Origin: Bacteroidales bacterium
GTDB taxonomy: Bacteria > Bacteroidota > Bacteroidia > Bacteroidales > P3
NCBI GenBank assembly: GCA_017633985.1
Contig: JAGBOF010000033.1
Span: 3,774-67,773, forward strand
Reading direction: 5' to 3'
DNA length: 64,000 bases
Under the pieces are notes generated by a model. It had not been told where the DNA came from, made no database searches, and was given only the letters and a program-made list of their open reading frames with translations. This document shows positions 7,095 through 18,130 of this stretch, in pieces. How positions within the stretch are numbered: position 1 is the first letter of the stretch; each line of letters opens with the position of its first letter. The translations under genes were made by a program, and so were the position numbers.

Positions 7095-8345
7095 ATGGAA
7101 TTCAAGCGTGTTGTAATCACGGGTTTGGGTGCTCTTACACCGATAGGCAACAATGCCGAAGAATATTGGCAGGGGTTGGTTAACGGTGTAAGCGGTGCTG
7201 CACCTATTACTCATTTTGACGCAACTAATGCGAAGACAACCTTTGCCTGTGAGGTTAAGAACTTCAAAGGCGAAGATTATTTTGACAGAAAAGAGATCAG
7301 AAAATACGATAGATTTTCCCAATACGGAATCGTTGCAGCCGATCAGGCAATGCAGGACAGCGGTCTTACGCTTGGCGATGAAGAAAAGGATTATGCGGGT
7401 GTTATTTGGGCGTCCGGAATAGGCGGCATTCAGACTTTTGAAGATGAAATAACGGATTACGTTCACGGAGACGGAACTCTGCGTTTTTCTCCGTTCTTTA
7501 TTCCGAAGATGATAGCCGATATTTGTGCGGGACACATATCCATGAAATACGGTTTCCGCGGTCCTAACTTCTGTACGGTAAGTGCCTGTGCTTCTTCAGC
7601 ACATGCTTTAGCCGAAGCTTTCATGTACATCCGTTTGGGTAAGGCAAAAGTTATGATTTCGGGAGGAAGCGAAGCTGCAGTTACGCATGCAGGTCTTGGA
7701 GGCTTTTCTTCCATGAAAGCAATCAGTCAAAGAAATGACGATCCTGCAACGGCATCCCGTCCTTTTGATAAAGACCGTGACGGATTCGTACTTGGCGAAG
7801 GTGCAGGTGCATTGGTATTGGAAGAATACGAACATGCCAAAGCCAGAGGAGCGAAAATATATGCTGAATTGGCAGGTACGGGTTGTACGGCCGATGCTTA
7901 TCACATGACAGCACCGCATCCGGAAGGTTTGGGAGCAATGCGTGCCATGCGTTTGGCTATAGAGGAAGCAGGATTGCAACTTACGGATATTGATCACATC
8001 AATACCCACGGTACATCCACTCCTTTGGGAGACGTTGCCGAGATTAAAGCCATCGTAAACTTATTCGGCGATCATGCAAAGAATATAAACATCAACAGTA
8101 CCAAATCAATGACGGGTCATTTGCTTGGTGCTGCAGGTGCAATCGAGGCCGTGGCTACTACTTTGGCAATTTACAACGGTATAGTACCCCCGACAATTAA
8201 CCATTTCACTGATGACGACAACCTGCCTGCATTAAATTATACGTTTAATAAGGCTCAAAAAAGAGAAATCAAGGCTGCCATCAGCAATACGTTCGGTTTC
8301 GGAGGACATAACGCATCGTTGGCGTTCAAAAAGGTAATTGAATAA
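7095..8345 (+). CDS. fabF: 3-oxoacyl-ACP synthase II
   Basis: 416 aa KAS II. It has the active-site Cys context TVSACASS, the His motifs (HMTAPHP, NTHGTST) and the C-terminal GFGGHN. Confidence 0.95.
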   Translation: MEFKRVVITGLGALTPIGNNAEEYWQGLVNGVSGAAPITHFDATNAKTTFACEVKNFKGEDYFDRKEIRKYDRFSQYGIVAADQAMQDSGLTLGDEEKDYAGVIWASGIGGIQTFEDEITDYVHGDGTLRFSPFFIPKMIADICAGHISMKYGFRGPNFCTVSACASSAHALAEAFMYIRLGKAKVMISGGSEAAVTHAGLGGFSSMKAISQRNDDPATASRPFDKDRDGFVLGEGAGALVLEEYEHAKARGAKIYAELAGTGCTADAYHMTAPHPEGLGAMRAMRLAIEEAGLQLTDIDHINTHGTSTPLGDVAEIKAIVNLFGDHAKNININSTKSMTGHLLGAAGAIEAVATTLAIYNGIVPPTINHFTDDDNLPALNYTFNKAQKREIKAAISNTFGFGGHNASLAFKKVIE

Positions 8346-8346
8346 T

Positions 8347-9087
8347 ATGTTTCTGTTTTTTAAAAACGCAAGAACAGAACAAGATAAAGAGTTATTAAAA
8401 TTTCTTAAGAATATTCTTGGGTTCAAACCCGGGAATATTCTTTTGTATAAGACGGCACTGATTCATAAATCCAAATCCCATAAAGACAGCAAAGGTTTCC
8501 GTGTAAATAACGAACGGTTGGAATACCTTGGCGACACGGTGTTGAGTACAATTATCGGCGATTATCTGTTTAAAAAATATCCGCATCAAGGCGAAGGATT
8601 TTTGACGGAAATGCGTTCAAAGATAGTCAGCCGCAGTTCCCTTAATGCCCTGTCCAAAAAAATCGGATTGGCACAACTGATAGAGTATACGCACGGTAAA
8701 GGCGGCGGTTATCTGTCTATGAGCGGCGATGCTTTTGAGGCGTTGACTGGGGCTATGTATCTGGACAAAGGTTACGATTTTACGTATAAGGTTTTGATAA
8801 ACCGCATATTTACGATATACCTTAATGTTGCCGATATGGAGACAAAGGATTGGAACTACAAGAGTAAGATTATTGATTGGGGGCAAAAGACCCGCCACCG
8901 CATATCTTATCAGGTTATTGATGTAAATGAGGACAACAAACGCAAGCAATACAAGGTTCAGATCTTCATTGATTCTTTTCCGCAGGAGACTGCAATAGAT
9001 TTTTCCATAAAAGCCGCCGAGCAATTGGCAAGTGAGAAGACCTATAAACGCTTACTTGACAGCGGCATCATCACAAACGAAAATTAG
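8347..9087 (+). CDS. rnc: Ribonuclease III
   Basis: It has the RNase III signature ERLEYLGDTVL and a C-terminal dsRBD-like region. The ATG at 8347 follows the fabF stop (8343-8345). The ORF-track TTG at 8338 would overlap that stop. Confidence 0.9.
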   Translation: MFLFFKNARTEQDKELLKFLKNILGFKPGNILLYKTALIHKSKSHKDSKGFRVNNERLEYLGDTVLSTIIGDYLFKKYPHQGEGFLTEMRSKIVSRSSLNALSKKIGLAQLIEYTHGKGGGYLSMSGDAFEALTGAMYLDKGYDFTYKVLINRIFTIYLNVADMETKDWNYKSKIIDWGQKTRHRISYQVIDVNEDNKRKQYKVQIFIDSFPQETAIDFSIKAAEQLASEKTYKRLLDSGIITNEN

Positions 9088-9323
9088 ACTTTCAATAAAT
9101 CAGTTACAGCATAGACCTTGCTTAAGTCATTGAATGTAAAGAATTGGTCATCCAATATCATCCAATTCTGACGTTGCTTTACAGAAAGTTTTTTTATGTC
9201 TGGGAAAAAAGAGACAGGCACGATAACTACACGTCCGTCAGAAAGAAACGCCTCTATCTTTCCTCTATAATCCGTGAAATTCAAATCCTTTATGCCTACA
9301 TTTGTATTACTTATTTTGCACAT
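9084..9323 (-). CDS. DUF2442-like small protein
   Basis: 79 aa. The pattern (DGRVVIVPVSFFP ... L ... QR.NW.I ... F) resembles DUF2442. It lies 2 nt downstream of the DUF4160-like gene on the same strand. Confidence 0.55.
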   Translation of the reverse strand: MCKISNTNVGIKDLNFTDYRGKIEAFLSDGRVVIVPVSFFPDIKKLSVKQRQNWMILDDQFFTFNDLSKVYAVTDLLKV

Positions 9324-9325
9324 AA

Positions 9326-9598
9326 CTATTCCTCCAAATTCTTCACAATCGTTTTTTCGCCGTTAAAAGATTTTGTTATTTGTTTATTCAAGAAATCCCA
9401 ATTTCGTTCTATTGCATTGATTAACATTGAATTTTCCTTGTTAGTCAGCGAAGATTCTGCGATTTCCACACATTTAACCCCGTTCTTTTCTATCCATATT
9501 TTGGCGACAGAATGCATTTTGCGTGAGCCTCTTCTGAATATATGAATATGCCTGCGGTTGTCAAACATATCAGTAGGTATAGATACCAGCAAAAACAT
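9326..9598 (-). CDS. DUF4160-like small protein
   Basis: About 91 aa counted from the Met at 9598. The N-terminus (MFLLVSIPTDMFDNRRHIHIF) resembles the DUF4160 'HxH' N-terminal motif. A TATTTTTG box lies at 9653-9660. Confidence 0.5.
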   Translation of the reverse strand: MFLLVSIPTDMFDNRRHIHIFRRGSRKMHSVAKIWIEKNGVKCVEIAESSLTNKENSMLINAIERNWDFLNKQITKSFNGEKTIVKNLEE

Positions 9599-9652
9599 TT
9601 TCAAAAATGCCAATTGTCCCATTAGTAAAGTTATTTTGCGGTTAAATTTTTG

Positions 9653-9660
9653 CAAAAATA
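9653..9660 (-). promoter_or_regulatory. -7 box TATTTTTG (DUF4160/DUF2442 pair)
   Basis: TAnnTTTG match on the minus strand. It lies inside the ORF-track N-terminal extension, which argues for an internal start. Confidence 0.5.
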
Positions 9661-9901: not shown

Positions 9902-12900
9902 TTATTCAATTATCAGCGGCTGCGTGAATTTTCCTACGTTGATATAGTATACTCCCGTCTCAAAATCGCTAACATTGATATCTTTAACGCCTTTAATGTT
10001 CTTGATTTCTCTAACAATCTGGCCTTTGTTATCAATTATCTTAATATCACCGTCGGCATGAATAGTTACTCTGTCTTTTGCAGGATTCGGATAAATACTT
10101 ATTATCTTTTCTTGTGTAATTTCCTCAATACCTGCAGTGACTTGTAGGTATAAAGTAACAATACTGTCGCATCCGTCATCGGTTTGAAGATTTAAGGTAT
10201 ATTCACCCGCATCTGATTCGGTAAATCCGTAACCATTGTAGGTTTCACCTGCATTTATTTCTGCATAAATATACGTCCTCGTCACCCCGCACGGTGTTAT
10301 GGTATCATGAAGATAAACAGTATCTATTGTATTAACGGTATCGTACAATGTTAAGGTGATAGTGTCTGTTAATGTGACAGTGTCTGTCTGCGTTAATGTG
10401 ATTGTGTCGGTTAATGTGACGGTATCGTATAGTGTTAAGGTGATAGTGTCGGTTGTATTGATAGTATCGTATAGCGTTAAGGTGATTGTATCAGTTAAAG
10501 TAACTGTATCGGTCTGTATCAAGGTGATTGTGTCAATTGTATTGATTGTATCGTATAGTGTTAAAACTATTGTGTCAGTTGTATTGATAGTATCATACAA
10601 TGTTAAAGTAACAGTGTCGGTCGTGTTGATAGTATCGTATAATGTTAAGGTGATAGTGTCAGTTAAAGTTACGGTATCTGTTTTAAGTGTTGTAAGGTTT
10701 AATCTAATAATGCTGTCGCAACCGTTAATTGTCTGAAGGTTTTGAATGTAATTGCCTTCGGATTGCTGGGTAAAACCGTTTAATGTATATGTATCCCCAC
10801 TTTGGATAATGCTTTCAATAAGCGTATCGTATGAAGGATTGACTGTCAGATTCAAAGTAACGATGCTGTCGCATTCATACTTGTTTAACAGATTTGCAAC
10901 ATATTCACCCGATTGTGTAAGCGTCTGTCCGTTAAATTCGAATCCGTCTCCCTGACATATACTTTTGTTAACAACGGTGTATTCCGTGTCACCCAAACGG
11001 TGTAATACCTCCGTGGAATACGTCCAGGTATTGTAATAACTGTCGAAACTGCCGCAAGGGACCCATATCCAGTCAGTCCCGCCTCTGTAGAACCTGTCAT
11101 AGCCTACAAAAGGAGCAGTCAAAGGGTAAGCATATACGGTATCAATGTAACAATCCTTAAACAAACGTTGAGGTAAACTTGTTACGTTCTCGTCAATTGT
11201 TAAGGTTTTGATATTATTACATTGATTGAATACTCCGTTAGGGTCACCGTAAGTATGCATAATGCTTGTGCAAGACGGAGAATTATAATTAATGATTTGT
11301 AAACTGTCACAGTTGGAAAATGCGCCTTCTTCCAATGTGTCCACCTTGTTGCTTACAGTTACTTCCTTAATATTTGTTCCCGAAAAAGCAAACACTCCGA
11401 TTCTTCTTACGTTGTCAGGCAGAGTTATATCTGCTTTTTTATTGTTTCTTAAGAAATAATGCGGGATGTATTCAACATCATTGCTGATTGTTACGTTTGT
11501 TAACGCCGTGTCATTGTCAAACATACCCAATCCTTCAAAGCAAGCATTATAATCAACATATACAGGATTATATTCAACTGCCGTAAGGTTAGGACAATAA
11601 GCAAAAGCTGCGCAACCGATAGAGGTTACCGTCTCGGGAATTGTCACCTCACTGATAGCAGTGGATGCAAAAGCATATTTACCTATTGAAGTGACATTGT
11701 CAGGCAGCGGTGCCGAAATAAGGTTGCCGCAATTGTTAAATGCATAATCGCCTATTTTCTTCAAAGAATTAGGAAAAGTCAATGAGGTTATCCCCTTTTC
11801 ATTGCTAAGTAAATAATTAGGTATTGTTTCTACATTACTGCCAATAACAAAGTTTTGAATTTTTCCATTCCTTGCAAGACCGTTAGAATAATCGGACGTA
11901 TATACTGCATTCTTTGCATTATAATATACAAACTCTAATGAATCACAACCTAACAGCGGAGTAATACCTATACTGTCAATCCCTTCAGGAATAGTAAATG
12001 TTTTCAATCTATTACAGTTTGCAAACAAATACCACGGGATAACTTCAACGTCATTTCCTATTGTTGCTGTTTCCACGTTAGTCCAATTGACAGAATGATT
12101 GTATATGTCTCCTAAACTATTACAATGCTTGGCATTCCAATGAACGGTTTTTAAACTTGTAGTATTTCCGAAGGCATTATTGCCCATATAAGTTAGACCT
12201 GCAGGAATGGTTATTTCACTGACAGATACTACTCCTTCAAAAGCACCGTTATCTATTGTCTGTAAACTGTCAGGAAAAGTAATTGACGTAATTCGGTTAC
12301 AACCGCTGAATGCATATGCTCCGATACTCCTTAAGGAAGCAGGGAAATTTACCTGTGTTATCTTCGGGCAACCGGCAAACAGATTGTTAGGTAATTTTTG
12401 AACTTCATTTCCTATAATAACCTTATCCAAATTACCTGCAACAACTTTTGACTTATAAAAATCATTTGCTCTGTCAGATGGATGAATTGTATGATAATCT
12501 ATACTAATTGCATTATAATACATAGTCTTCAAACTATCACACCCGGTAAAGATTTCCCAACCTAAATAAGTTACAGTCTTCGGAATTGTTATTTCTTTAA
12601 GTTTAGTACAACCATAAAAAGCGTTATTGCATAGAGAATCAAGACCTTCCTGTACAATACAAGTTTCCAGACTTGAAGAAAGATAAAATGCATGGTCTCC
12701 GATGTATTTTAATGAAGAAGACAGAGTAAGAGATGTTAAATTATCACTTCTGAAGAATGCCCATGGACTTATGTATTTTACGGTGGACGGAAGTGTAAGC
12801 GTATAGTCTTGGGTTGCCATTCCCCTCGCATGAACGATTAAGGTGTCTTTTGCTTTATTATACAAACACCTGTTTTCCATAACATAGTTAGTGTTACCCT

Positions 12901-13261
12901 CTTCCAATGTTATTTCAAAAGCTCCGTGAAAAGCACCGCATTCAATATATTTAACGGTATTAGGAATTGTAATATTTGTCCTGCCTGTTACACTACCGTA
13001 ATATCCGATTTGATATCCGATACTCGTGACGGTATATTCGTCGCCGTTGTAAGTAACTTTCGATGGTATAACAATGTTAGTACTGTTACCTGTGATACTT
13101 GTCATTTTTACTTCAAAGTTAGGATAAACATTAGAAGTAATTTGATAATACAATCCGCCTGAACTGAAATAACTGCCTACGGTTTGTGCATTAGTTTGCA
13201 CACATGTCAATCCTAAACAATAAAGGATTGCAACTAATAAAACTTTTTTCAATTTTGCCAT
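9902..13261 (-). CDS. BspA-type leucine-rich-repeat (LRR_5) surface protein with a T9SS C-terminal sorting domain (LRR gene A)
   Basis: 1119 aa. The signal peptide is MAKLKKVLLVAILYCLGLTCVQTNAQ. It has more than 20 LRR_5-like units (IP..V..IG..AF..C..L..I), Cys-bracketed GCDS modules and a Thr-rich DT(V/I)TL repeat tract. The Por-type CTD reads IYPNPAKDRVTI ... GVYYINVGKFTQPLIIE. Confidence 0.85.
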   Translation of the reverse strand: MAKLKKVLLVAILYCLGLTCVQTNAQTVGSYFSSGGLYYQITSNVYPNFEVKMTSITGNSTNIVIPSKVTYNGDEYTVTSIGYQIGYYGSVTGRTNITIPNTVKYIECGAFHGAFEITLEEGNTNYVMENRCLYNKAKDTLIVHARGMATQDYTLTLPSTVKYISPWAFFRSDNLTSLTLSSSLKYIGDHAFYLSSSLETCIVQEGLDSLCNNAFYGCTKLKEITIPKTVTYLGWEIFTGCDSLKTMYYNAISIDYHTIHPSDRANDFYKSKVVAGNLDKVIIGNEVQKLPNNLFAGCPKITQVNFPASLRSIGAYAFSGCNRITSITFPDSLQTIDNGAFEGVVSVSEITIPAGLTYMGNNAFGNTTSLKTVHWNAKHCNSLGDIYNHSVNWTNVETATIGNDVEVIPWYLFANCNRLKTFTIPEGIDSIGITPLLGCDSLEFVYYNAKNAVYTSDYSNGLARNGKIQNFVIGSNVETIPNYLLSNEKGITSLTFPNSLKKIGDYAFNNCGNLISAPLPDNVTSIGKYAFASTAISEVTIPETVTSIGCAAFAYCPNLTAVEYNPVYVDYNACFEGLGMFDNDTALTNVTISNDVEYIPHYFLRNNKKADITLPDNVRRIGVFAFSGTNIKEVTVSNKVDTLEEGAFSNCDSLQIINYNSPSCTSIMHTYGDPNGVFNQCNNIKTLTIDENVTSLPQRLFKDCYIDTVYAYPLTAPFVGYDRFYRGGTDWIWVPCGSFDSYYNTWTYSTEVLHRLGDTEYTVVNKSICQGDGFEFNGQTLTQSGEYVANLLNKYECDSIVTLNLTVNPSYDTLIESIIQSGDTYTLNGFTQQSEGNYIQNLQTINGCDSIIRLNLTTLKTDTVTLTDTITLTLYDTINTTDTVTLTLYDTINTTDTIVLTLYDTINTIDTITLIQTDTVTLTDTITLTLYDTINTTDTITLTLYDTVTLTDTITLTQTDTVTLTDTITLTLYDTVNTIDTVYLHDTITPCGVTRTYIYAEINAGETYNGYGFTESDAGEYTLNLQTDDGCDSIVTLYLQVTAGIEEITQEKIISIYPNPAKDRVTIHADGDIKIIDNKGQIVREIKNIKGVKDINVSDFETGVYYINVGKFTQPLIIE
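10300..10690 (-). repeat. In-frame Thr-rich periodic repeat tract (TDT[VI]TL / TLYDTINT units)
   Basis: The protein reads LKTDTVTLTDTITLTLYDTINTTDTVTLTLYDTINT ... DTVYLHDTITPCG. The plus-strand shadow ORF reads VSVNVTVSV. Confidence 0.85.
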
Positions 13262-13599
13262 TTTCTTTCTTATTTTATTATGATTAATAATTTAATTTGT
13301 TCTTTACAATACATAAAAAGAAACCGTGGGAAACTTTTCTTGTTTATCACTTTTCCACGGTCTTTTCTACGAACCTTATTCCATCTAAACATACAAAGCC
13401 CACGATTTCTCGTGAGCGAGGCTTTCATGTTCTTTAGGAATAATATTACTTTTTATAGTGTAGAAAAGTTTTGGAAAAGTAATACGAACACAAAGCTAAC
13501 GCTTTATTTCTCTTATGTCAATATTTTATTATCTTATTTTCTAAATCATATCGTATTTATCCTTAATATAATATTTTATTTTCACCCCTTTATCTTATG
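13262..13599 (-). promoter_or_regulatory. Long conserved 5' leader of LRR gene A (candidate cis-regulatory RNA)
   Basis: It lies between the -7 box (13600-13607) and the ATG (13261). It shares blocks with the LRR gene B leader: hairpin ACCGTGG..CCACGGT (13323-13361), hairpin AAAGCC-CACGATTTCTCGTG-..-GGCTTT (13395-13425) and CTAACGCTTTATT (near 13495). Confidence 0.5.
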
Positions 13600-13607
13600 C
13601 AAAAGTA
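13600..13607 (-). promoter_or_regulatory. -7 box TACTTTTG (LRR gene A promoter)
   Basis: The reverse complement of caaaagta. The same GCAAAAGTAC context recurs at 18122-18131 upstream of LRR gene B. Confidence 0.55.
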
Positions 13608-13775
13608 CAAATATTTCTTTAATTAGCAAAATATCGCTCTATTCCTCTGACAAATCAAAGCGTGAACTGTCTAAAAGTTATATTTAAACCCTGTAGACAA
13701 CAAACCCTTGTTACCCGCACCTCAATCAAGAAAGGACTTACACTTTTTACCTATTTCAACACCTATCTGCGTGAC

Positions 13776-14273
13776 TTAAAAAGCCAATTGCATAGTATTG
13801 TCGTTCTCTGTCGGCACGCTGTTGTTATCCAATGCCTTCGTTCTTTCATTTCTATAGCATAGTCCAAGTCCAATATAAGAATAGAAATTAACCGAATTGC
13901 TGCGTGACCAAATTCTTTTAACGGTAGGAACAAAGTAATAATAGCGTCTTAAGTTCTCTTCCCTGTAATCGGAGCTGTGATAAGTCTCTCTTGTTATTGT
14001 TTTGTTGGCACTGAAACCTGCAAAAGCGCCGAAAGCAAGTTTATCCGAGTAGTTATAGCTGTAATCAACTGCGTATGAGCCGTAAGCCGTCATATCGTCG
14101 GGTGTAACAAGTCCGAAAGTAATAACCGCCACTAATATGTCAGCAAACATACGTCCGTCGGTAGAAGGCAAAACTCCTGCGGAAATACCTATATCGTGTT
14201 TGCCGTTTTGCGCCTGTGCCAAACAGGGAATAAACAATAATCCTAATAAGAACCCGATAATCAGTTTTTTCAT
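13776..14273 (-). CDS. Small outer-membrane beta-barrel (porin-family) protein
   Basis: 165 aa. The signal peptide is MKKLIIGFLLGLLFIPCLAQA. It shows alternating aromatic/aliphatic beta-strand patterns and a C-terminal Phe. Confidence 0.6.
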   Translation of the reverse strand: MKKLIIGFLLGLLFIPCLAQAQNGKHDIGISAGVLPSTDGRMFADILVAVITFGLVTPDDMTAYGSYAVDYSYNYSDKLAFGAFAGFSANKTITRETYHSSDYREENLRRYYYFVPTVKRIWSRSNSVNFYSYIGLGLCYRNERTKALDNNSVPTENDNTMQLAF

Positions 14274-14366: not shown

Positions 14367-14374
14367 CAAAATTA
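14367..14374 (-). promoter_or_regulatory. -7 box TAATTTTG (small OMP gene)
   Basis: The reverse complement of caaaatta, about 95 nt upstream of the ATG at 14273. Confidence 0.5.
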
Positions 14375-14647: not shown

Positions 14648-17600
14648 TTATTCAATTATCAATGGTTGCGTGAATTTACCTACTTTTATGTAGTAAATTC
14701 CCGCCTTGAAATCCTTAATATTGATATCAAGTTGTTGAGATTGTATGTCGGATTTATAGACAACTTGTCCCGCATTGTTAATAATAGTTATTACCTTATC
14801 ACCATCCAATATCAAATGTCCGATATCCAATGTAACTTTGTCTTTTGCAGGATTCGGATAAATATTCAGTGAAACGGTTTCCGTAATGCCGTCTATTCCG
14901 CTGTCGTGCTTATAGTGGATTGTCGTAGTTACTATACTGTCGCAACCGAATTGGGATTGAAGCGTATCAATAATTACTTCGTCGTATTCATCCATGGTTG
15001 CATCTTCAAGTATACGCGTTTCTTCTGCACTGACGCTGTATGTCTGATGAGCGGTAAGCGTCAATACGATTATGCTGTCCTTATCCATGTTTACGTGAAC
15101 GGTGTCTTTGTATTCTCCCGCAACGCTTAATTCCCGTCCGTTAAAGTTATAGGTTTCTCCCTCGCATATTGATGCCTCGATATTTACCGTAACGATTTCT
15201 TTATTGCAACCTGTTTCGGTATAATTGGCGAACATGTTCCACCAAGCTGCGGATTTGTAAGTATTCATTGCACCGCACGGAACAAAGACAGGTATGGTGT
15301 TCAAAACTTCTTCGAATGTGGAGCTGTAGATTGTCGGCGGCACTTCTGCGTAAGATACGATCGTGTCCATGTTTTCACAAAATGCAAACGCCTTTTTGTC
15401 AATCTTGGCAACGCCTGTGCCTAATTCCAGATATGAAAGGTTGCCGCAATTGCTGAATGCGTATGTTCCGATGTTTTTTACGCTATTAGGAAGTATTATT
15501 TTGTTGATTTTATGAAATTTGGATATGAACTTACTGTCTTGGTCAGGATTGTAAGGGTTATAGTTTAAGGTTCTGCCTTGAAGAAGTTTGGCGGGGATGT
15601 TTTCAACCTTATCTCCGAAAATAAATGCGGATATATTGGTGTCACCGTCAAACATAGGATAAACTTCATCTTCGTAGTCTTCATCGTAAATATACGAAGC
15701 ATTAATGGCGTTCCATCTGACTGTATCCAGCGATGTGCAATCTGCGAATGCCTGTTCGCCTATCTTTTCCACATTTTCAGGAATAGTGACAGTCTTTAAG
15801 TTCTTACATCCGCGGAACACATTGGAACCAATAGATTTCAGACTGTTCGGCAAAATTATACTGTCAGTTAGAAAATTACGGAATAAGCCCTCGTCAAGTT
15901 TTTCGACATTGCTGCCGATATTTACCTTTGTTATGGTCGGATTTGTCGAGAACACGTAAGAACCGCATGAAGCATTGACGGCATTATAGTTCAATGTGTC
16001 AAGGTTTGTACATTCTGGAAAAACATAACGTTCTATTGTATCTACATTTTCAGGGATTGTGACGGAAGTTAGACCTATGCAATTAGCAAAAGCATTTTCT
16101 CCTATAAATGTAACCGATGACGGAATTTCTATTTTCGTTATCTTCTTAAATCTATTGTCAGCTATCGTGTCGAAAATATATTCTTGTGTTTGGTAATCGA
16201 AGTTTGCCATAATATCCATAGGTCCGTATAATATCGCTTGAGGAATTCTTTTTACTCCGTCTGCAAATATAAATGAAGATATATTGACGGATTCGGAGAA
16301 TGGACTTTCAGAATAATCGTGTGTGCAATTAACTGCATTAAAATTAACGGTTGTTAAACTTTTGTTGTCTGAAAATGCATGTACTCCGATACTTTCAACG
16401 GCGGCAGGAATAGTTAAATCAGTAATGCCAAGCCCCGTCAAAGACAAATCGCCTATTGTTTTAACGCTTTCAGGCAGTGATAATGATTTTATTTTGTTAA
16501 AATCCAAGGTGTCAGTGTATAAATAATCACCCTTATCATCTGCAATGTTTTTCAATTCCTGCTTGAAAAGTTTATCAGGAATAACTTCTACATTTTCTCC
16601 GAAGTTAATTTCAGAGATATTTGTATCAGCGTAGAACATAGAGTGATTTTGTGAATAATATGAAGCCTTATAGTAACAATTCTTCGCATTGAAATTAACT
16701 TTTGTCAGAGACGGAAGATCGGCAAAAGCTTCTGTGCCGATGGTATCAACTGTTGATGGGATAGTTATCTCTGTCAAGCCCGTGTTCATAAATGCCGAAT
16801 CTCCTATAATCCGTACTCCGTCAGGAATAGTAACGGAAGAAAGATTTATCTGATTCAATAAAAACTTATCGGGAATAGCTTCCACACTGTCCCCTATGTT
16901 TACAGTTGTAATGTTGAAGCTTCCAAAAATATGTTTTTTGCTTAATTGGAAATCGTAGGAGTCATAATATATACGGGAGGTTATGTCATATAAGCCATTT
17001 AATTCATTTTGCCAAGCGTTTCTCTTTTGAAATACAAATGCAGCAGCTTTAGCATTATAGTTCAAGGTTTTTAATTGTTTTATTCCGTGAAAACAATCTA
17101 ATCCGAATTCTTTTACTGACGCAGGAATGGTAATTGTGTTAATTTTAGGGAATCTGCATACAATACTGTCATAATAAGTGTATGAGAAGTCCCATATCCG
17201 AATTGTATCTTCGTCTAAAAATCCGTTGGGGATAACTTCCACATGGTTTCCTATATTAACCGTAGATATATTGGTATCTCTGTCAAACATGCTTCCCACT
17301 ATATCATACTCACTTTTATATACCGTAGCGTTATAAGCACGTATTGCATTATAATTTACGGTTTGCAGTTTTGTACATAAAGCAAACGCTTTGTTACCTA
17401 CAACCTTTACATTTTCAGGAATTGTAATTGTAGTTAGATTGTAGCAGTTGTAGAATGAGGAATCTCCTATTACCTGCATGGAATTAGGGAAAACTACTGA
17501 TTGAATGCCTAATCCGGGAAATGCTCCGTTGTCTACGGCATTTACCGTGAATGTTTTGTTGCCGTGACTGACGGATGACGGTATATTAACATTCGAAAGA

Positions 17601-17782
17601 TTTGCATAGCTGTAGTTGTTAATGACTTTTACTGTGCTGTCGGATGTTACTTCGAAGTACAGCTTACCGTCGGTAATCGTGTCGGCAATGTTATCACCGC
17701 TTCCGTGTGCCTTTGTTTGCTCACCTACCAGTCCCAATAATATAAGGACTGCAATTGATAAAGATTTTAATGATTTTTTCAT
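14648..17782 (-). CDS. BspA-type LRR surface protein with a T9SS C-terminal sorting domain (LRR gene B)
   Basis: The start is set at the Met giving signal peptide MKKSLKSLSIAVLILLGLVG. It has LRR_5-like units throughout and the CTD NIYPNPAKDKVTL ... GIYYIKVGKFTQPLIIE. It lacks the Thr-rich tract. Confidence 0.85.
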   Translation of the reverse strand: MKKSLKSLSIAVLILLGLVGEQTKAHGSGDNIADTITDGKLYFEVTSDSTVKVINNYSYANLSNVNIPSSVSHGNKTFTVNAVDNGAFPGLGIQSVVFPNSMQVIGDSSFYNCYNLTTITIPENVKVVGNKAFALCTKLQTVNYNAIRAYNATVYKSEYDIVGSMFDRDTNISTVNIGNHVEVIPNGFLDEDTIRIWDFSYTYYDSIVCRFPKINTITIPASVKEFGLDCFHGIKQLKTLNYNAKAAAFVFQKRNAWQNELNGLYDITSRIYYDSYDFQLSKKHIFGSFNITTVNIGDSVEAIPDKFLLNQINLSSVTIPDGVRIIGDSAFMNTGLTEITIPSTVDTIGTEAFADLPSLTKVNFNAKNCYYKASYYSQNHSMFYADTNISEINFGENVEVIPDKLFKQELKNIADDKGDYLYTDTLDFNKIKSLSLPESVKTIGDLSLTGLGITDLTIPAAVESIGVHAFSDNKSLTTVNFNAVNCTHDYSESPFSESVNISSFIFADGVKRIPQAILYGPMDIMANFDYQTQEYIFDTIADNRFKKITKIEIPSSVTFIGENAFANCIGLTSVTIPENVDTIERYVFPECTNLDTLNYNAVNASCGSYVFSTNPTITKVNIGSNVEKLDEGLFRNFLTDSIILPNSLKSIGSNVFRGCKNLKTVTIPENVEKIGEQAFADCTSLDTVRWNAINASYIYDEDYEDEVYPMFDGDTNISAFIFGDKVENIPAKLLQGRTLNYNPYNPDQDSKFISKFHKINKIILPNSVKNIGTYAFSNCGNLSYLELGTGVAKIDKKAFAFCENMDTIVSYAEVPPTIYSSTFEEVLNTIPVFVPCGAMNTYKSAAWWNMFANYTETGCNKEIVTVNIEASICEGETYNFNGRELSVAGEYKDTVHVNMDKDSIIVLTLTAHQTYSVSAEETRILEDATMDEYDEVIIDTLQSQFGCDSIVTTTIHYKHDSGIDGITETVSLNIYPNPAKDKVTLDIGHLILDGDKVITIINNAGQVVYKSDIQSQQLDINIKDFKAGIYYIKVGKFTQPLIIE

Positions 17783-18122
17783 TTGTTTGTCTGTGCAGAT
17801 TACCCGCTGCATCCCCCGGGTCTTATTGTTTTTATATTTTTGTTATTTGGAATTAAGACATAAAAAAGTAACCGTGAAACTTTCCTGTAATTTCCCCACG
17901 GTTTTCGACGACCCTTTCATAGATATACACGAAGCCCACGATTTCTCGCAGGCGAAAGACTTCGTTCTAAAATCTATAAAAGGTAACACTTCTTATGTTG
18001 TCGAAATTTGTGGGGAAGTGCAGAACTGTTAATCTAACGCTTTATTCTTTTATGTCATAATTTTATTACATGCTTATATCATATTATTTATTAGTTTAAG
18101 TATCTTAAAAAACTTGTTTTTG
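17783..18122 (-). promoter_or_regulatory. Long conserved 5' leader of LRR gene B (candidate cis-regulatory RNA)
   Basis: It shares with leader A the exact 15-mer GCCCACGATTTCTCG (17934-17948) inside a hairpin closed by CGAAG/CTTCG (17930-17964). It also shares ACCGTG..CACGGT (17871-17902) and CTAACGCTTTATT (near 18035). Confidence 0.5.
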
Positions 18123-18130
18123 CAAAAGTA
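18123..18130 (-). promoter_or_regulatory. -7 box TACTTTTG (LRR gene B promoter)
   Basis: The reverse complement of caaaagta, in the same context as 13600-13607. Confidence 0.55.

Follow-up and report, generated by a model that had tools for sequence, protein, structure and literature searches.

The window, that is, the whole stretch of 64,000 nucleotides that was analysed, carried on its minus strand two units, A and B, embedded among housekeeping genes. Each consisted of a promoter box, a leader with a structured element (rod RNA) and a gene for an LRR protein:

9902 to 13261, minus strand: gene A, whose 1119-aa product is an LRR protein of BspA type bearing a signal peptide and, at its C-terminus, a T9SS sorting domain.
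13262 to 13310, minus strand: distal leader of A, from the rod to the ATG, free of promoter boxes.
13311 to 13519, minus strand: rod RNA copy A, an unbranched hairpin of helices P1 to P6, its closing helix being extended by GACAUA...UAUGU (MFE, covariance model and covariation).
13520 to 13599, minus strand: 5' spacer of 80 nt, AT-rich, from the predicted start site to the rod, unconserved in the family.
13600 to 13607, minus strand: -7 promoter box TACTTTTG of unit A, Bacteroidetes-type (sequence and motif scan).
14648 to 17782, minus strand: gene B, LRR/T9SS cargo paralogue of A, 1044 aa counted from ATGAAAAAA at 17782.
17857 to 18056, minus strand: rod RNA copy B (covariance model, 113.6 bits; MFE).
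18123 to 18130, minus strand: -7 promoter box TACTTTTG of unit B (sequence and motif scan).

The product of gene A matched Pfam LRR_5 (6.7e-107) and Por_Secre_tail (1.3e-11). Proteins A and B were 26% identical, and the coding regions, whose N-terminal parts an earlier note on this DNA had called unalignable at DNA level, had diverged far more than the leaders. A terminator-like hairpin with a U-run was seen 3' of gene B, and also 3' of the upstream operon in locus L016; judged from sequence, such sites near neighbouring genes make it plausible that the host RNA polymerase responds to signals of this type.

All of the discrete blocks that the earlier note had reported as common to the leaders of A (13262-13607) and B (about 17783-18130) were found on the minus strand. 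The first, GTACTTTTGCA, includes the TAnnTTTG -7 box in both units, and was also present in the leader of the gene A ortholog in locus L023. In unit A, a -33-like TTTG was located at 13627-13630, 19 nt 5' of the -7 box. The second block was TAATAAAAT..TGACATAA.AG.AATAAAGCGTTAG, and its 13-mer AATAAAGCGTTAG had exact matches in the 64 kb window in the two leaders only. The reported 15-mer was exact only at 13398-13412 and 17934-17948, but the match is really 17 nt long (CGAGAAATCGTGGGCTT). The last common block was AACCGTGG...CACGGTT.CTTTTT. The 5' spacers of A and B were alignable in parts only. The two leaders folded much more stably than shuffled sequence did (z = -4.9 and -5.2). The box at 13600-13607 was not the sole TAnnTTTG 5' of gene A, as had been stated, given that TAGCTTTG at 13491-13498 matches too. 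As an internal or family promoter TAGCTTTG was rejected: it lies inside an invariant RNA block, and its final G occurred in 0/14 other copies. The roughly 340-nt leader thought to be conserved did contain a structured RNA, but the structured element is about 200 nt (13311-13519). Copy A scored 106.8 bits with covariance model R1 and 109.7 bits with model R2, and the parts of the two rods were as follows:

13486 to 13511, minus strand: invariant 5' block AAAGCGUUAGCUUU, forming either a local hairpin (H0) or the P1 5' strand.
13345 to 13484, minus strand: rod body of copy A (helix coordinates from MFE).
13472-13484 with 13345-13357, minus strand: P2 of copy A (MFE).
13460-13468 with 13362-13370, minus strand: P3 of copy A (MFE).
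13448-13459, minus strand: subfamily-specific mini-hairpin of copy A (MFE).
13437-13447 with 13372-13382, minus strand: P4 of copy A (MFE).
13420-13432 with 13387-13400, minus strand: P5 of copy A (MFE).
13398 to 13417, minus strand: apical hairpin P6 of copy A, GCUCACGA-GAAA-UCGUGGGC, including the 15-mer.
13315 to 13337, minus strand: P1 3' strand (AAAGUU..CCCACGG) and U-tract UUUCUUUUU (U-tract, 13315-13323).
17934-17953, minus strand: P6 of copy B (MFE).
18042-18055 with 17858-17871, minus strand: extended P1 of copy B (MFE).

Family-wide, P1 is formed by an A-run plus AAAGCGUUAGCUUU pairing with the 3' tail AAAGUU...YYCACG(G), which is followed by the U-tract; the AAAGCGUUAGCUUU block was invariant or nearly so across 15 copies. 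The rod is capped by a hairpin that hardly varies, GCUCACGA-GNRA-UCGUGGGC, with a GAAA loop in 11/15 copies and GUAA, UGAACC, GCUGAA or UGUGUAA in the others. Conserved unpaired nucleotides comprise the loop AA(A)/ACC between P2 and P3, a CAAAA(A) bulge, a UA bulge and a UAAAC-type bulge. The interrupted duplex amounts to roughly 55-60 bp, and none of its internal loops exceeds about 6-7 nt by 2-3 nt when a small helix beside P3 is formed. K-turn, loop E and 11-nt GAAA receptor were considered and did not fit by inspection. A U-tract was found 3' of YRCG(G) in 15/15 copies, with a run of 6-8 U in most and a shorter or interrupted run in the window subfamily (A, B, L016 and L023a). P6 of copy B is GCCUGCGA-GAAA-UCGUGGGC; the suggestion that the hairpins of A and B differ in a way that preserves pairing was borne out, with all three P6 differences pairing through G-U and the helix below P6 being (G)AAAG/CUUU in A and CGAAG/CUUCG in B. 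The sequence AACCGTG...CCACGG, which had been taken for a hairpin, is present but consists mostly of the P2 3' strand plus the P1 3' strand. A local hairpin AACCGTGG...CCACGGTT with its T-run was rejected as a family terminator, occurring in copies A and B only; in the family this sequence makes up the ACC loop and the 3' strands of P2 and P1.

Another 13 distinct copies came from pattern scans and from a covariance model, the latter being a search that the earlier note had proposed, and brought the total to 15, a sample biased by the GAAA loop that the pattern scans demanded and by the LRR genes from which protein-based retrieval began. Carriers were uncultured Bacteroidales of the termite gut and, probably, the ruminant gut. 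Rod length in the family was about 175-200 nt. Locus L023 contained 2 copies within 23 kb. Mismatch-tolerant patterns and two covariance models revealed no copies beyond A and B in the 64 kb window, the second model gave no additional copies in 184 kb scanned, and the rod pattern had no match in viral contigs, plasmids and phages.

The MFE fold of the individual copy was the same rod in 11/11 copies. In the 15-copy alignment, 90.1% of cells held standard pairs, versus 39-47% with the partners slid by 1-3 columns, and both sides had changed in a compensatory manner at 36 of the 55 pairs. The covariation score was 0.603 (0.20 in shuffles; 0/500 shuffles as high). RNAalifold independently yielded P2, P3, P4 and P6, with 27 covarying pairs. 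Pairing was 98% in P2 (10/10 pairs covarying), 100% in P3 (6/7) and 90% in P4 (7/7), and P6 had 99% standard pairs in 15 copies with compensatory swaps at two pairs. The sequences of P2 to P5 varied freely between copies and kept their complementarity. Orthologs from other species, whose proteins were 45% and 54% identical, retained the rod with compensatory changes. The earlier note had named absence of covariation among homologs as evidence against its proposal; covariation was very strong.

The folding strand was indicated by 65 G-U pairs versus 13 A-C mismatches, an excess which points to the strand of the gene. The sense fold was stabler than the antisense fold in 11/13 copies, and covariance model scores were 103-175 bits for sense and at most 37 bits for antisense. 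These results establish that the minus strand at 13311-13519 codes for a member of a structured RNA family that had not been described before, and they support the earlier proposal that a long 5' leader contains a structured, conserved RNA.

A gene on the opposite strand could in principle have imposed the conservation, and plus-strand ORFs do cover both leaders (135 aa over leader A, 13280-13687; 138 aa over leader B), the 135-aa ORF being annotated as a gene in ENA assemblies. The two ORF products, however, were unrelated (BLASTP E = 1.7) and had no Pfam match, and the sole database match of the 135-aa ORF was a copy at 98% identity, which is presumably this locus from a different assembly. 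Conservation was in discrete blocks with compensatory changes and showed no codon pattern. A coding origin retains next to no probability and is refuted.

The element might also have no RNA function and be a remnant of duplicated DNA, a palindromic repeat of MITE or REP type, or an ordinary bidirectional terminator. Duplication did take place at some time, as the paralogous units A and B lie side by side; the element, an imperfect long palindrome that carries both an A-run and a T-run, has the shape of a bidirectional terminator; and in four copies (L005, L007, L009 and L010) the element was directly 3' of the upstream gene with no promoter visible. Yet the helices were almost wholly different and still paired, with 36 covarying pairs, and loops and tip were conserved from Prevotellaceae to Candidatus Symbiothrix to unclassified Bacteroidales MAGs, beside coding regions down to 26% protein identity. 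Terminal inverted repeats, target duplications and near-identical dispersed copies, as expected of MITE or REP elements, were missing, with 2 copies per 64 kb. The 5:1 ratio of G-U to A-C and the strong strand asymmetry also disagree with a DNA element. Absence of an RNA function is very unlikely and is already contradicted by covariation.

Rfam 15 (4227 models) gave no match in the whole window at gathering score, in agreement with the earlier statement that this is not a described RNA motif of Bacteroidota. Permissive searches (two leaders, E up to 10; four consensus-like loci, E up to 5) returned chance matches only, to miRNA, rox2 and RefA1 models (15-20 bits versus thresholds of 55-94). 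The models tested include 6S, 6S-Flavo, Bacteroidales-1, Bacteroid-trp, lysM-Prevotella, Termite motifs, T-box and riboswitches. Full-text literature searches found such a rod RNA nowhere described.

A TAnnTTTG box of sigma-A type, predicted from the consensus, was located 35-132 nt 5' of the rod in 10/15 copies, and between rod and ATG in 0/14 copies with a known ORF, against a background of about 1 per kb per strand. The downstream ORF was co-oriented in 14/14 assessable copies, at a distance of 28-172 nt. The element is thus placed as a leader, with a predicted promoter upstream, none between element and ORF, and the same orientation as the ORF. An N-terminal signal peptide or membrane helix (hydrophobic segment) was present in 13/14 downstream proteins versus 34% of 41 other window ORFs, and N-terminal hydrophobicity differed between both groups (Mann-Whitney p = 0.002). 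The tie to T9SS LRR cargo drawn in the earlier note applies to gene A, but the association is with exported and membrane proteins generally. Among loci retrieved with LRR homologs as bait, L020 (Hadza human gut) and L021 had no copy beside the LRR gene, and in L022 the copy adjoined a different gene, other than the LRR bait; the RNA is therefore not a feature of LRR genes as such. No candidate for an effector gene linked to the rod RNA was found in the loci examined.

The neighbouring genes bear on an extremely improbable reading, in which the element is a recombination hairpin of single-stranded DNA that marks gene cassettes, similar to integron attC sites. Sites of attC share the conserved structure, the variable stem sequence and the strand-specific fold, and several neighbours are cassette-like (genes of toxin-antitoxin type and for small secreted proteins); DUF4160/DUF2442, a HepT-like gene (by motif inspection only), NERD and 8xMP are among the neighbours. 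On the other hand, the ends AAAGCGTTAGC...GCTCACGTTTT, read by eye, do not fit the R''/R' consensus (RYYYAAC...GTTRRRY), and the tip is the most conserved part of the rod, whereas attC tips are variable. A promoter was found 5' of most copies; a scan of 50 window ORFs, reaching to 56.7 kb, revealed no integrase, transposase or reverse transcriptase; and the window units sit among housekeeping genes.

A trans-acting small RNA, freed by termination at the U-tract or by processing, with downstream expression as incidental read-through, is decidedly unlikely. Such an RNA could be a 6S-like rod that sequesters a protein, or a scaffold. The succession of promoter, structured RNA and U-tract and the pairing of the 5' end with the 3' end, a trait of many stable RNAs, agree with it, and conserved loops and tip suggest a protein partner. 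Size and shape are reminiscent of 6S RNA and 6S-Flavo (RF00013, RF01685), which the rod resembles in its length of about 180-200 nt, its paired ends, interrupted helices and terminal loop. However, the internal loops of the rod are small and there is no large central bubble resembling an open promoter; 6S models did not score the rod even at E = 10. Co-orientation with a nearby ORF in 14/14 copies, lack of a separate promoter for the ORF and the bias in gene products would be unexpected for a trans-acting gene. Accessory genes carry the rod in their leaders, and a genome has several copies (2 in the window, 2 in the 23 kb of L023), and 70-110 nt of unconserved 5' sequence would need trimming.

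The nucleotides of the P1 5' strand can form H0 instead, which in copy A is GAAAUAAAGC-GUUA-GCUUUGU.UUC. RNAalifold and the MFE fold of the full leader A predicted H0, and whole-molecule folds predicted P1. In constrained folds, H0 was better by a mean of 2.8 kcal/mol (14/15 copies) when the RNA ended before the U-tract, and P1 was better by a mean of 2.7 kcal/mol (13/15 copies) when the U-tract and 14 more nt were present. The two states appear nearly equal in predicted energy. H0 was weakened in copy B, with P1 favoured in both states. Compensatory changes in P1 were C-G to A-U (P1b) in copy B and A-U to G-C in L016. H0 and the greater part of P1 vary so little that covariation does not discriminate between the two. 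By computation, the leader has both a helix followed by a U-tract and mutually exclusive pairing, as an attenuator should. P1 has a G+C core of no more than 3-7 bp, interrupted by a mismatch or bulge, and P1 minus its A:U pairs was calculated to be weaker than H0 at the point where termination would need to happen. Because P1 is weak and its G+C core short, unaided termination is probably inefficient. Conservation of the U-tract could simply reflect pairing of the A-run with two alternative U-runs.

Pairing past the U-tract (GACAUA/UAUGUC) was significant in the window subfamily only, and as a family feature it was rejected (family-wide permutation p = 0.067). If real, such pairing would mean that the structure works in read-through mRNA, which fits a post-transcriptional role or attenuation. 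A leader peptide or mini-ORF was suggested by some features (ATG-x-stop upstream, the GCCTATG box, and AUG/GUG/AUU directly after the U-tract) but was rejected, with positions and lengths unconserved.

It is unlikely, in our estimate, that the rod is a post-transcriptional leader domain with no role in termination, acting as mRNA stabiliser or processing site. As a substrate of RNase III, in the form of a long and imperfect duplex, or by hiding its AU-rich tail from cleavage of RNase E/G/Y type, it would set the half-life of the mRNA or make a defined 5' end. The thermodynamic preference for P1 only once the U-tract has left the polymerase, the pairing 3' of the U-tract in the window subfamily, which hence exists in read-through mRNA, and the roughly 55-60 bp of interrupted duplex are consistent with such a domain. 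The window does contain a gene for RNase III (8338-9087), but as a housekeeping gene it carries little weight. A stabiliser or nuclease site leaves the near-invariant unpaired nucleotides unexplained, and does not account for an invariant 5' block and a tip that are conserved across Bacteroidales families or for the bistable design of H0 and P1. Protective hairpins, moreover, usually act at the 5' end, whereas the rod is 30-120 nt from it.

The leader is tentatively read, from its modelled folding, as a cis-acting two-state switch or attenuator, the best of the readings considered, although we hold it to be somewhat short of probable. The 5' block, transcribed first, would fold as the small local hairpin H0 (AAAAGC-GUUA-GCUUUU). 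The emerging 3' tail would then compete for the nucleotides of H0 and close the rod as P1, which would set a helix directly against the U-tract in the geometry of an intrinsic terminator. H0 would be favoured until the U-tract is free, and P1 thereafter. Whether P1 closes early or late would depend on a factor that reads the tip and the conserved loops; as the rod is long and has several such loops, a protein is likelier than a small ligand, although a ligand is possible. Early closure would cause premature termination, with the gene off, and late closure would allow read-through to an mRNA with its AU-rich tail sequestered.

Leaders with terminators and antiterminators (attenuators, riboswitch platforms, RAT/BglG) resemble this arrangement in leader placement, in the helix abutting a U-tract and in an early segment with two exclusive pairings of near-equal energies. 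They differ in that P1 of the rod is no compact hairpin but closes about 150 nt of structured rod, and in that its G+C core is short, a good part of its stability coming from A:U pairs with the U-tract. The rod matched Rfam riboswitch and leader families neither in sequence nor in structure. T-box Stem I is similar as a long irregular stem with conserved internal loops and distal end, followed by a choice between terminator and antiterminator, and T-boxes likewise occur in multiple copies per genome before functionally related genes. However, specifier loop, K-turn, T-box sequence and NCCA-binding bulge were not seen in the rod (by eye), its genes are not amino-acid related, and the Rfam T-box model did not match. 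We know of essentially no T-boxes in Bacteroidota. Riboswitches for c-di-GMP precede genes of adhesins and surface proteins, e.g., in Clostridioides and Vibrio. Their resemblance to the rod is functional only (structured leader with terminator, surface or secreted genes, conserved GNRA tetraloop); they are two-hairpin aptamers, whereas the rod is unbranched, of 190 nt, and has no Rfam match. Fremin and Bhatt 2021 (PMC8040213) described candidate 'palindromic' RNAs of Bacteroidetes that are hairpin-shaped, intergenic and conserved, some being predicted terminators, with 80-132 nt and near TPR, RuvA, TonB or phage genes. By the descriptions only, these candidates are set apart from the rod by size and gene association.

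In a broader interpretation, which is improbable, the rod may be the sensing part of a regulatory RNA of a new class, which would coordinate the variable exported proteome of gut Bacteroidales. The genes under its control would be those of T9SS adhesin-like LRR proteins, lipoproteins and membrane-anchored accessory or conflict proteins. The rod might bind a dedicated protein or a small signalling molecule that sets H0 or P1, or it might be an RNA 'address' read by the export or translation machinery. To our knowledge, Bacteroidota are without Shine-Dalgarno-led initiation, Hfq and CsrA. The GCUCACG helix, repeated at base and tip, could be a double binding site for one factor.

Bacteroidota have few known large structured RNAs, and their gene control after initiation is very poorly understood. 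The rod RNA has about 190 nt, unusually clear covariation and several conserved unpaired motifs, and its link to genes of exported and membrane proteins, T9SS cargo included, is non-random. For annotation, it bears on the spurious ORFs now called on rod RNA in public records. The consensus, the covariance models and the H0/P1 hypothesis supply concrete mutations. If the rod is a switch, it would define a regulon of surface and accessory proteins and point to an effector, protein or ligand, and coordination of the variable surface proteome of Bacteroidales would become directly testable.

Rod RNAs, unbranched hairpins of about 200 nt, occupied the leaders of two neighbouring paralogous LRR T9SS cargo genes (genes A and B). 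The MAG is an uncultured Bacteroidales, found in the ENA metagenome assemblies XIEF21-1 and presumably from a ruminant gut. The features concerned were:

9902-13261, minus strand: gene A, BspA-type LRR protein with signal peptide and T9SS C-terminal sorting domain
14648-17782, minus strand: gene B, BspA-type LRR protein with signal peptide and T9SS C-terminal sorting domain
13311-13519, minus strand: rod RNA, copy A
17857-18056, minus strand: rod RNA, copy B
13600-13607 (A) and 18123-18130 (B), minus strand: GTACTTTTGCA with Bacteroidetes-type TAnnTTTG -7 box, from the leader alignment

Alignment of the two upstream regions recovered all the shared blocks described in the earlier note, in identical order: the promoter block, TGACATAA.AG.AATAAAGCGTTAG, then CGAGAAATCGTGGGCTT, exact over 17 nt and including the exact 15-mer of that note, and last AACCGTGG...CACGGTT.CTTTTT. 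Exact matches to the 15-mer and to the 13-mer AATAAAGCGTTAG were limited to the two leaders within the 64-kb window. Proteins A and B were only 26% identical, so the leaders were far better conserved than their downstream genes. Fold stability greatly exceeded that of shuffled controls in both leaders (z = -4.9 and -5.2). The box at 13600-13607 had been described as the only TAnnTTTG upstream of gene A, which was wrong: a second match, TAGCTTTG, lay at 13491-13498 (minus) in leader A. It fell inside the invariant RNA block and matched the consensus in copy A only; its final G was unique to this copy among 15, and the other 14 carried A, C or T in the last position, the one before it, or both (e.g., TAGCTTTC, TAGCTTAT, TAGATTAA).

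A small hairpin, UGCAG-CGGGUAAU-CUGCA, preceded the gene B ATG by about 12 nt (17794-17811, minus). The 45%-identical gene B ortholog had this hairpin before it too (L016:9923-9940), with identical arms and one loop base A/U; leader A and the other loci lacked it. The hairpin may influence translation initiation. Between the LRR units, a 165-aa ORF (13776-14273, minus) had a signal peptide, its own TAATTTTG box near 14370 and no Pfam match. By eye, its composition was like that of a short outer-membrane beta-barrel, and the ORF is possibly the remnant of a truncated OMP gene.

A gapped pattern from two shared blocks (gap 70-100 nt) retrieved three loci from GTDB species genomes, in two Prevotellaceae MAGs and one Candidatus Symbiothrix MAG. 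With the gap shifted to 60-90 nt it retrieved nine loci from JGI metagenomes, of which one was a chance match and two were identical; in viral contigs it retrieved none, and plasmid and phage collections held nothing similar to the rod. A covariance model was built from the pattern-found loci and run on loci fetched through protein homologs, where it found more divergent copies. These lay upstream of the gene B ortholog in L016 and of the gene A ortholog (54% identical) in L023, and, met by chance, beside unrelated genes in L022 and L023. The total was 15 distinct full-length copies, plus one ended by its contig end (L008), in a sample biased by a search pattern that demanded a GAAA loop and by LRR genes as retrieval bait. 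A second covariance model found no additional copy in 184 kb of sequence scanned.

Every copy, folded alone, gave the same unbranched rod. In the closing helix P1, a 5' A-run plus AAAGCGUUAGCUUU paired with 3' AAAGUU...YYCACG(G) and a U-tract. Above it stood P2, of about 11 bp, then a conserved AA/ACC loop and the 7-bp P3, followed by a small helix and conserved CAAAA(A) and UA bulges, and by P4, P5 and P6. The apical hairpin P6 was nearly invariant (GCUCACGA-GNRA-UCGUGGGC). Its loop was GAAA in 11 of the 15 copies and GUAA, UGAACC, GCUGAA or UGUGUAA in the other four, in which neighbouring pairs were swapped in a compensatory way. Together with their orthologs, the two window copies made up a subfamily in which the central loop carried an additional mini-hairpin and the closing helix was longer. 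Wobble was tolerated in the partners of the fixed strands (the 5' block and the 3' arm of P6), which suggests that something else also reads these strands.

The base helix (GCGUUAGC/GCUCACG) was nearly the same as the tip helix (GCUCACGA/UCGUGGGC): in all copies GCUCACG occurred twice per rod, in P1 and P6, each time paired to CGUKRGC (copy A: base 13495-13505 with 13325-13331, tip 13398-13417). In one subclass (L004, L007, L010, L011) a 3' bulge, AGAGUAAUUGCUCACG, mimicked the whole 5' strand of P5-P6. The repeat and the mimicry could have arisen by an internal duplication, or could represent a double binding site or a strand swap. In every copy the U-tract was followed at once by AUG, GUG or AUU (13312-13314 and 17859-17861 in the window); the short ORFs opened there were conserved in neither length nor sequence. 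In the window subfamily, UAUGU(C) 3' of the U-tract paired with (G)ACAUA 5' of the A-run.

Stems P2-P5 kept complementarity with sequences almost unrelated between copies. In the 15-copy alignment, standard pairs filled 90.1% of pair cells, and sliding the 3' partners by 1-3 columns lowered this to 39-47%; both sides had changed in 36 of 55 pairs, and the covariation score was 0.60 versus 0.20 in shuffles (0 of 500 as high). The earlier note had named homologs without covariation as a refutation; covariation was present. A plain MAFFT alignment, not fitted to structure, gave 80% versus 40-49% and 31 doubly changed pairs, and RNAalifold recovered P2, P3, P4 and P6 independently. The structural signal belonged to the strand of the downstream gene, on which G-U pairs numbered 65 versus 13 A-C mismatches; for 11 of 13 copies the sense strand gave the stronger fold of the two, and covariance-model scores were 103-175 bits in sense and at most 37 bits in antisense.

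The compensatory pattern, the conservation across bacterial families and the strand asymmetry contradicted an origin as neutral duplicated DNA, as a MITE or REP-type repeat or as a plain terminator; neither the end sequences nor the conserved tip matched what an attC-like recombination site would have. Of the 50 ORFs scanned in the window (up to 56.7 kb), most were housekeeping genes and none was an integrase, transposase or reverse transcriptase. Antisense ORFs over the leaders (13280-13687, plus, 135 aa, listed as a gene in public assemblies at ENA; 17616-18032, plus, 138 aa) were rejected as genes. Their products were unrelated to each other and had no Pfam match, and the only database match to the 135-aa ORF was 98% identical and presumably came from a second assembly of this locus; they are thus spurious calls over non-coding RNA.

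The invariant 5' block can pair in two mutually exclusive ways, locally as the hairpin H0 (AAAAGC-GUUA-GCUUUU) and at long range as P1. H0 was the RNAalifold consensus choice and also formed in the MFE when leader A was folded in full. P1 closed the rod, setting a helix directly against the conserved U-tract, and compensatory changes spoke for it (C-G to A-U in copy B, A-U to G-C in L016); a G and a C inserted in L016 and L023 fitted both. When either pairing was forced in the 15 copies, H0 was favoured in RNA ending just before the U-tract (mean 2.8 kcal/mol, 14 of 15 copies), and P1 with the U-tract and 14 more nt available (mean 2.7 kcal/mol, 13 of 15 copies). The leader would thus be bistable, with a balance that tips as polymerase passes the U-tract. 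Hairpin-plus-U-run terminator-like sites were visible after neighbouring genes, which makes it plausible that a closed rod with U7 behind it could act as a terminator in these genomes.

The best reading of these folds, computational like all functional statements on the rod, is a cis-acting switch or attenuator, in which P1 would close early or late under the control of a factor that recognises the conserved loops and tip; early closure would cause premature termination, and late closure would allow read-through, the AU-rich tail then being sequestered. Against attenuation, unaided P1 was calculated to be weaker than H0 at the decision point, copy B was predicted to favour P1 in both states, and the G+C core of P1 was short; the U-tract may owe its conservation solely to the need of the A-run for two alternative U-run partners. 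Serious rivals are a purely post-transcriptional role of the same structure, in mRNA stability or processing, and a small RNA derived from the leader.

A motif-predicted TAnnTTTG box lay 35-132 nt upstream of the rod in 10 of 15 copies, against a background of about one box per kb per strand; none lay between rod and ATG in the 14 copies with an identified downstream ORF. That ORF was co-oriented in 14 of 14, 28-172 nt downstream of the rod. Four termite-gut copies directly followed a DUF2442 gene (supported by Pfam in L007, and in L005 and L009 by a similar C-terminus alone) or, in L010, a HepT-like gene recognised solely by its RX4HXY motif, with no promoter visible between. A DUF4160 and DUF2442 gene pair directly followed gene A (9084-9655, minus). 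Such toxin-antitoxin-like genes may have a link to the RNA, or may just be common neighbours in variable regions. A GCCTATG box stood between promoter and rod, at variable position, in L001, L002, L005, L009 and L011 (34-96 nt upstream of the rod; GCCGATG in L008) and often opened a mini-ORF of 1-13 codons. GC-rich REP-like palindromes (GGGGCGAGGCATGCC...GGCATGCCTCGCCCC type) occurred downstream of the rods in L010, L011 and L007 and recurred in termite-gut contigs, where they gave spurious ORFs of the 'GRMQYAPT' type.

Downstream proteins were diverse: LRR T9SS cargo, a lipoprotein, a DUF5683-like protein, a NERD nuclease-like protein with a membrane anchor, an 8xMP membrane protein and small secreted proteins. 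Of the 14, 13 began with a signal peptide or transmembrane helix, versus 34% of 41 other window ORFs (N-terminal export or membrane signal, Mann-Whitney p = 0.002; effective sample about 11, since three pairs of copies were orthologous). Two were of types characteristic of conflict or defence islands: the 8xMP octameric membrane protein (PF24838) of L011, and the TM-anchored NERD plus Top1-type zinc-ribbon protein of L023:1261-2070 (minus), which adjoined a PIF1 helicase gene.

No Rfam 15 family matched at gathering or permissive thresholds, and a full-text search of published literature, including candidate-RNA surveys, found nothing like the rod, in agreement with the earlier note, which did not recognise it as a described Bacteroidota motif. 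By membership tests it belonged to neither T-box leaders nor 6S RNA, nor to any other family in Rfam. In its gene association it resembled c-di-GMP riboswitches before adhesin genes, with unrelated architecture, and in overall logic the T-box leader, in which a long irregular recognition stem precedes a structural choice; in its working it would be closest to terminator/antiterminator leaders. The rod was filed as a new family within a known kind, the structured cis-acting leader RNA.
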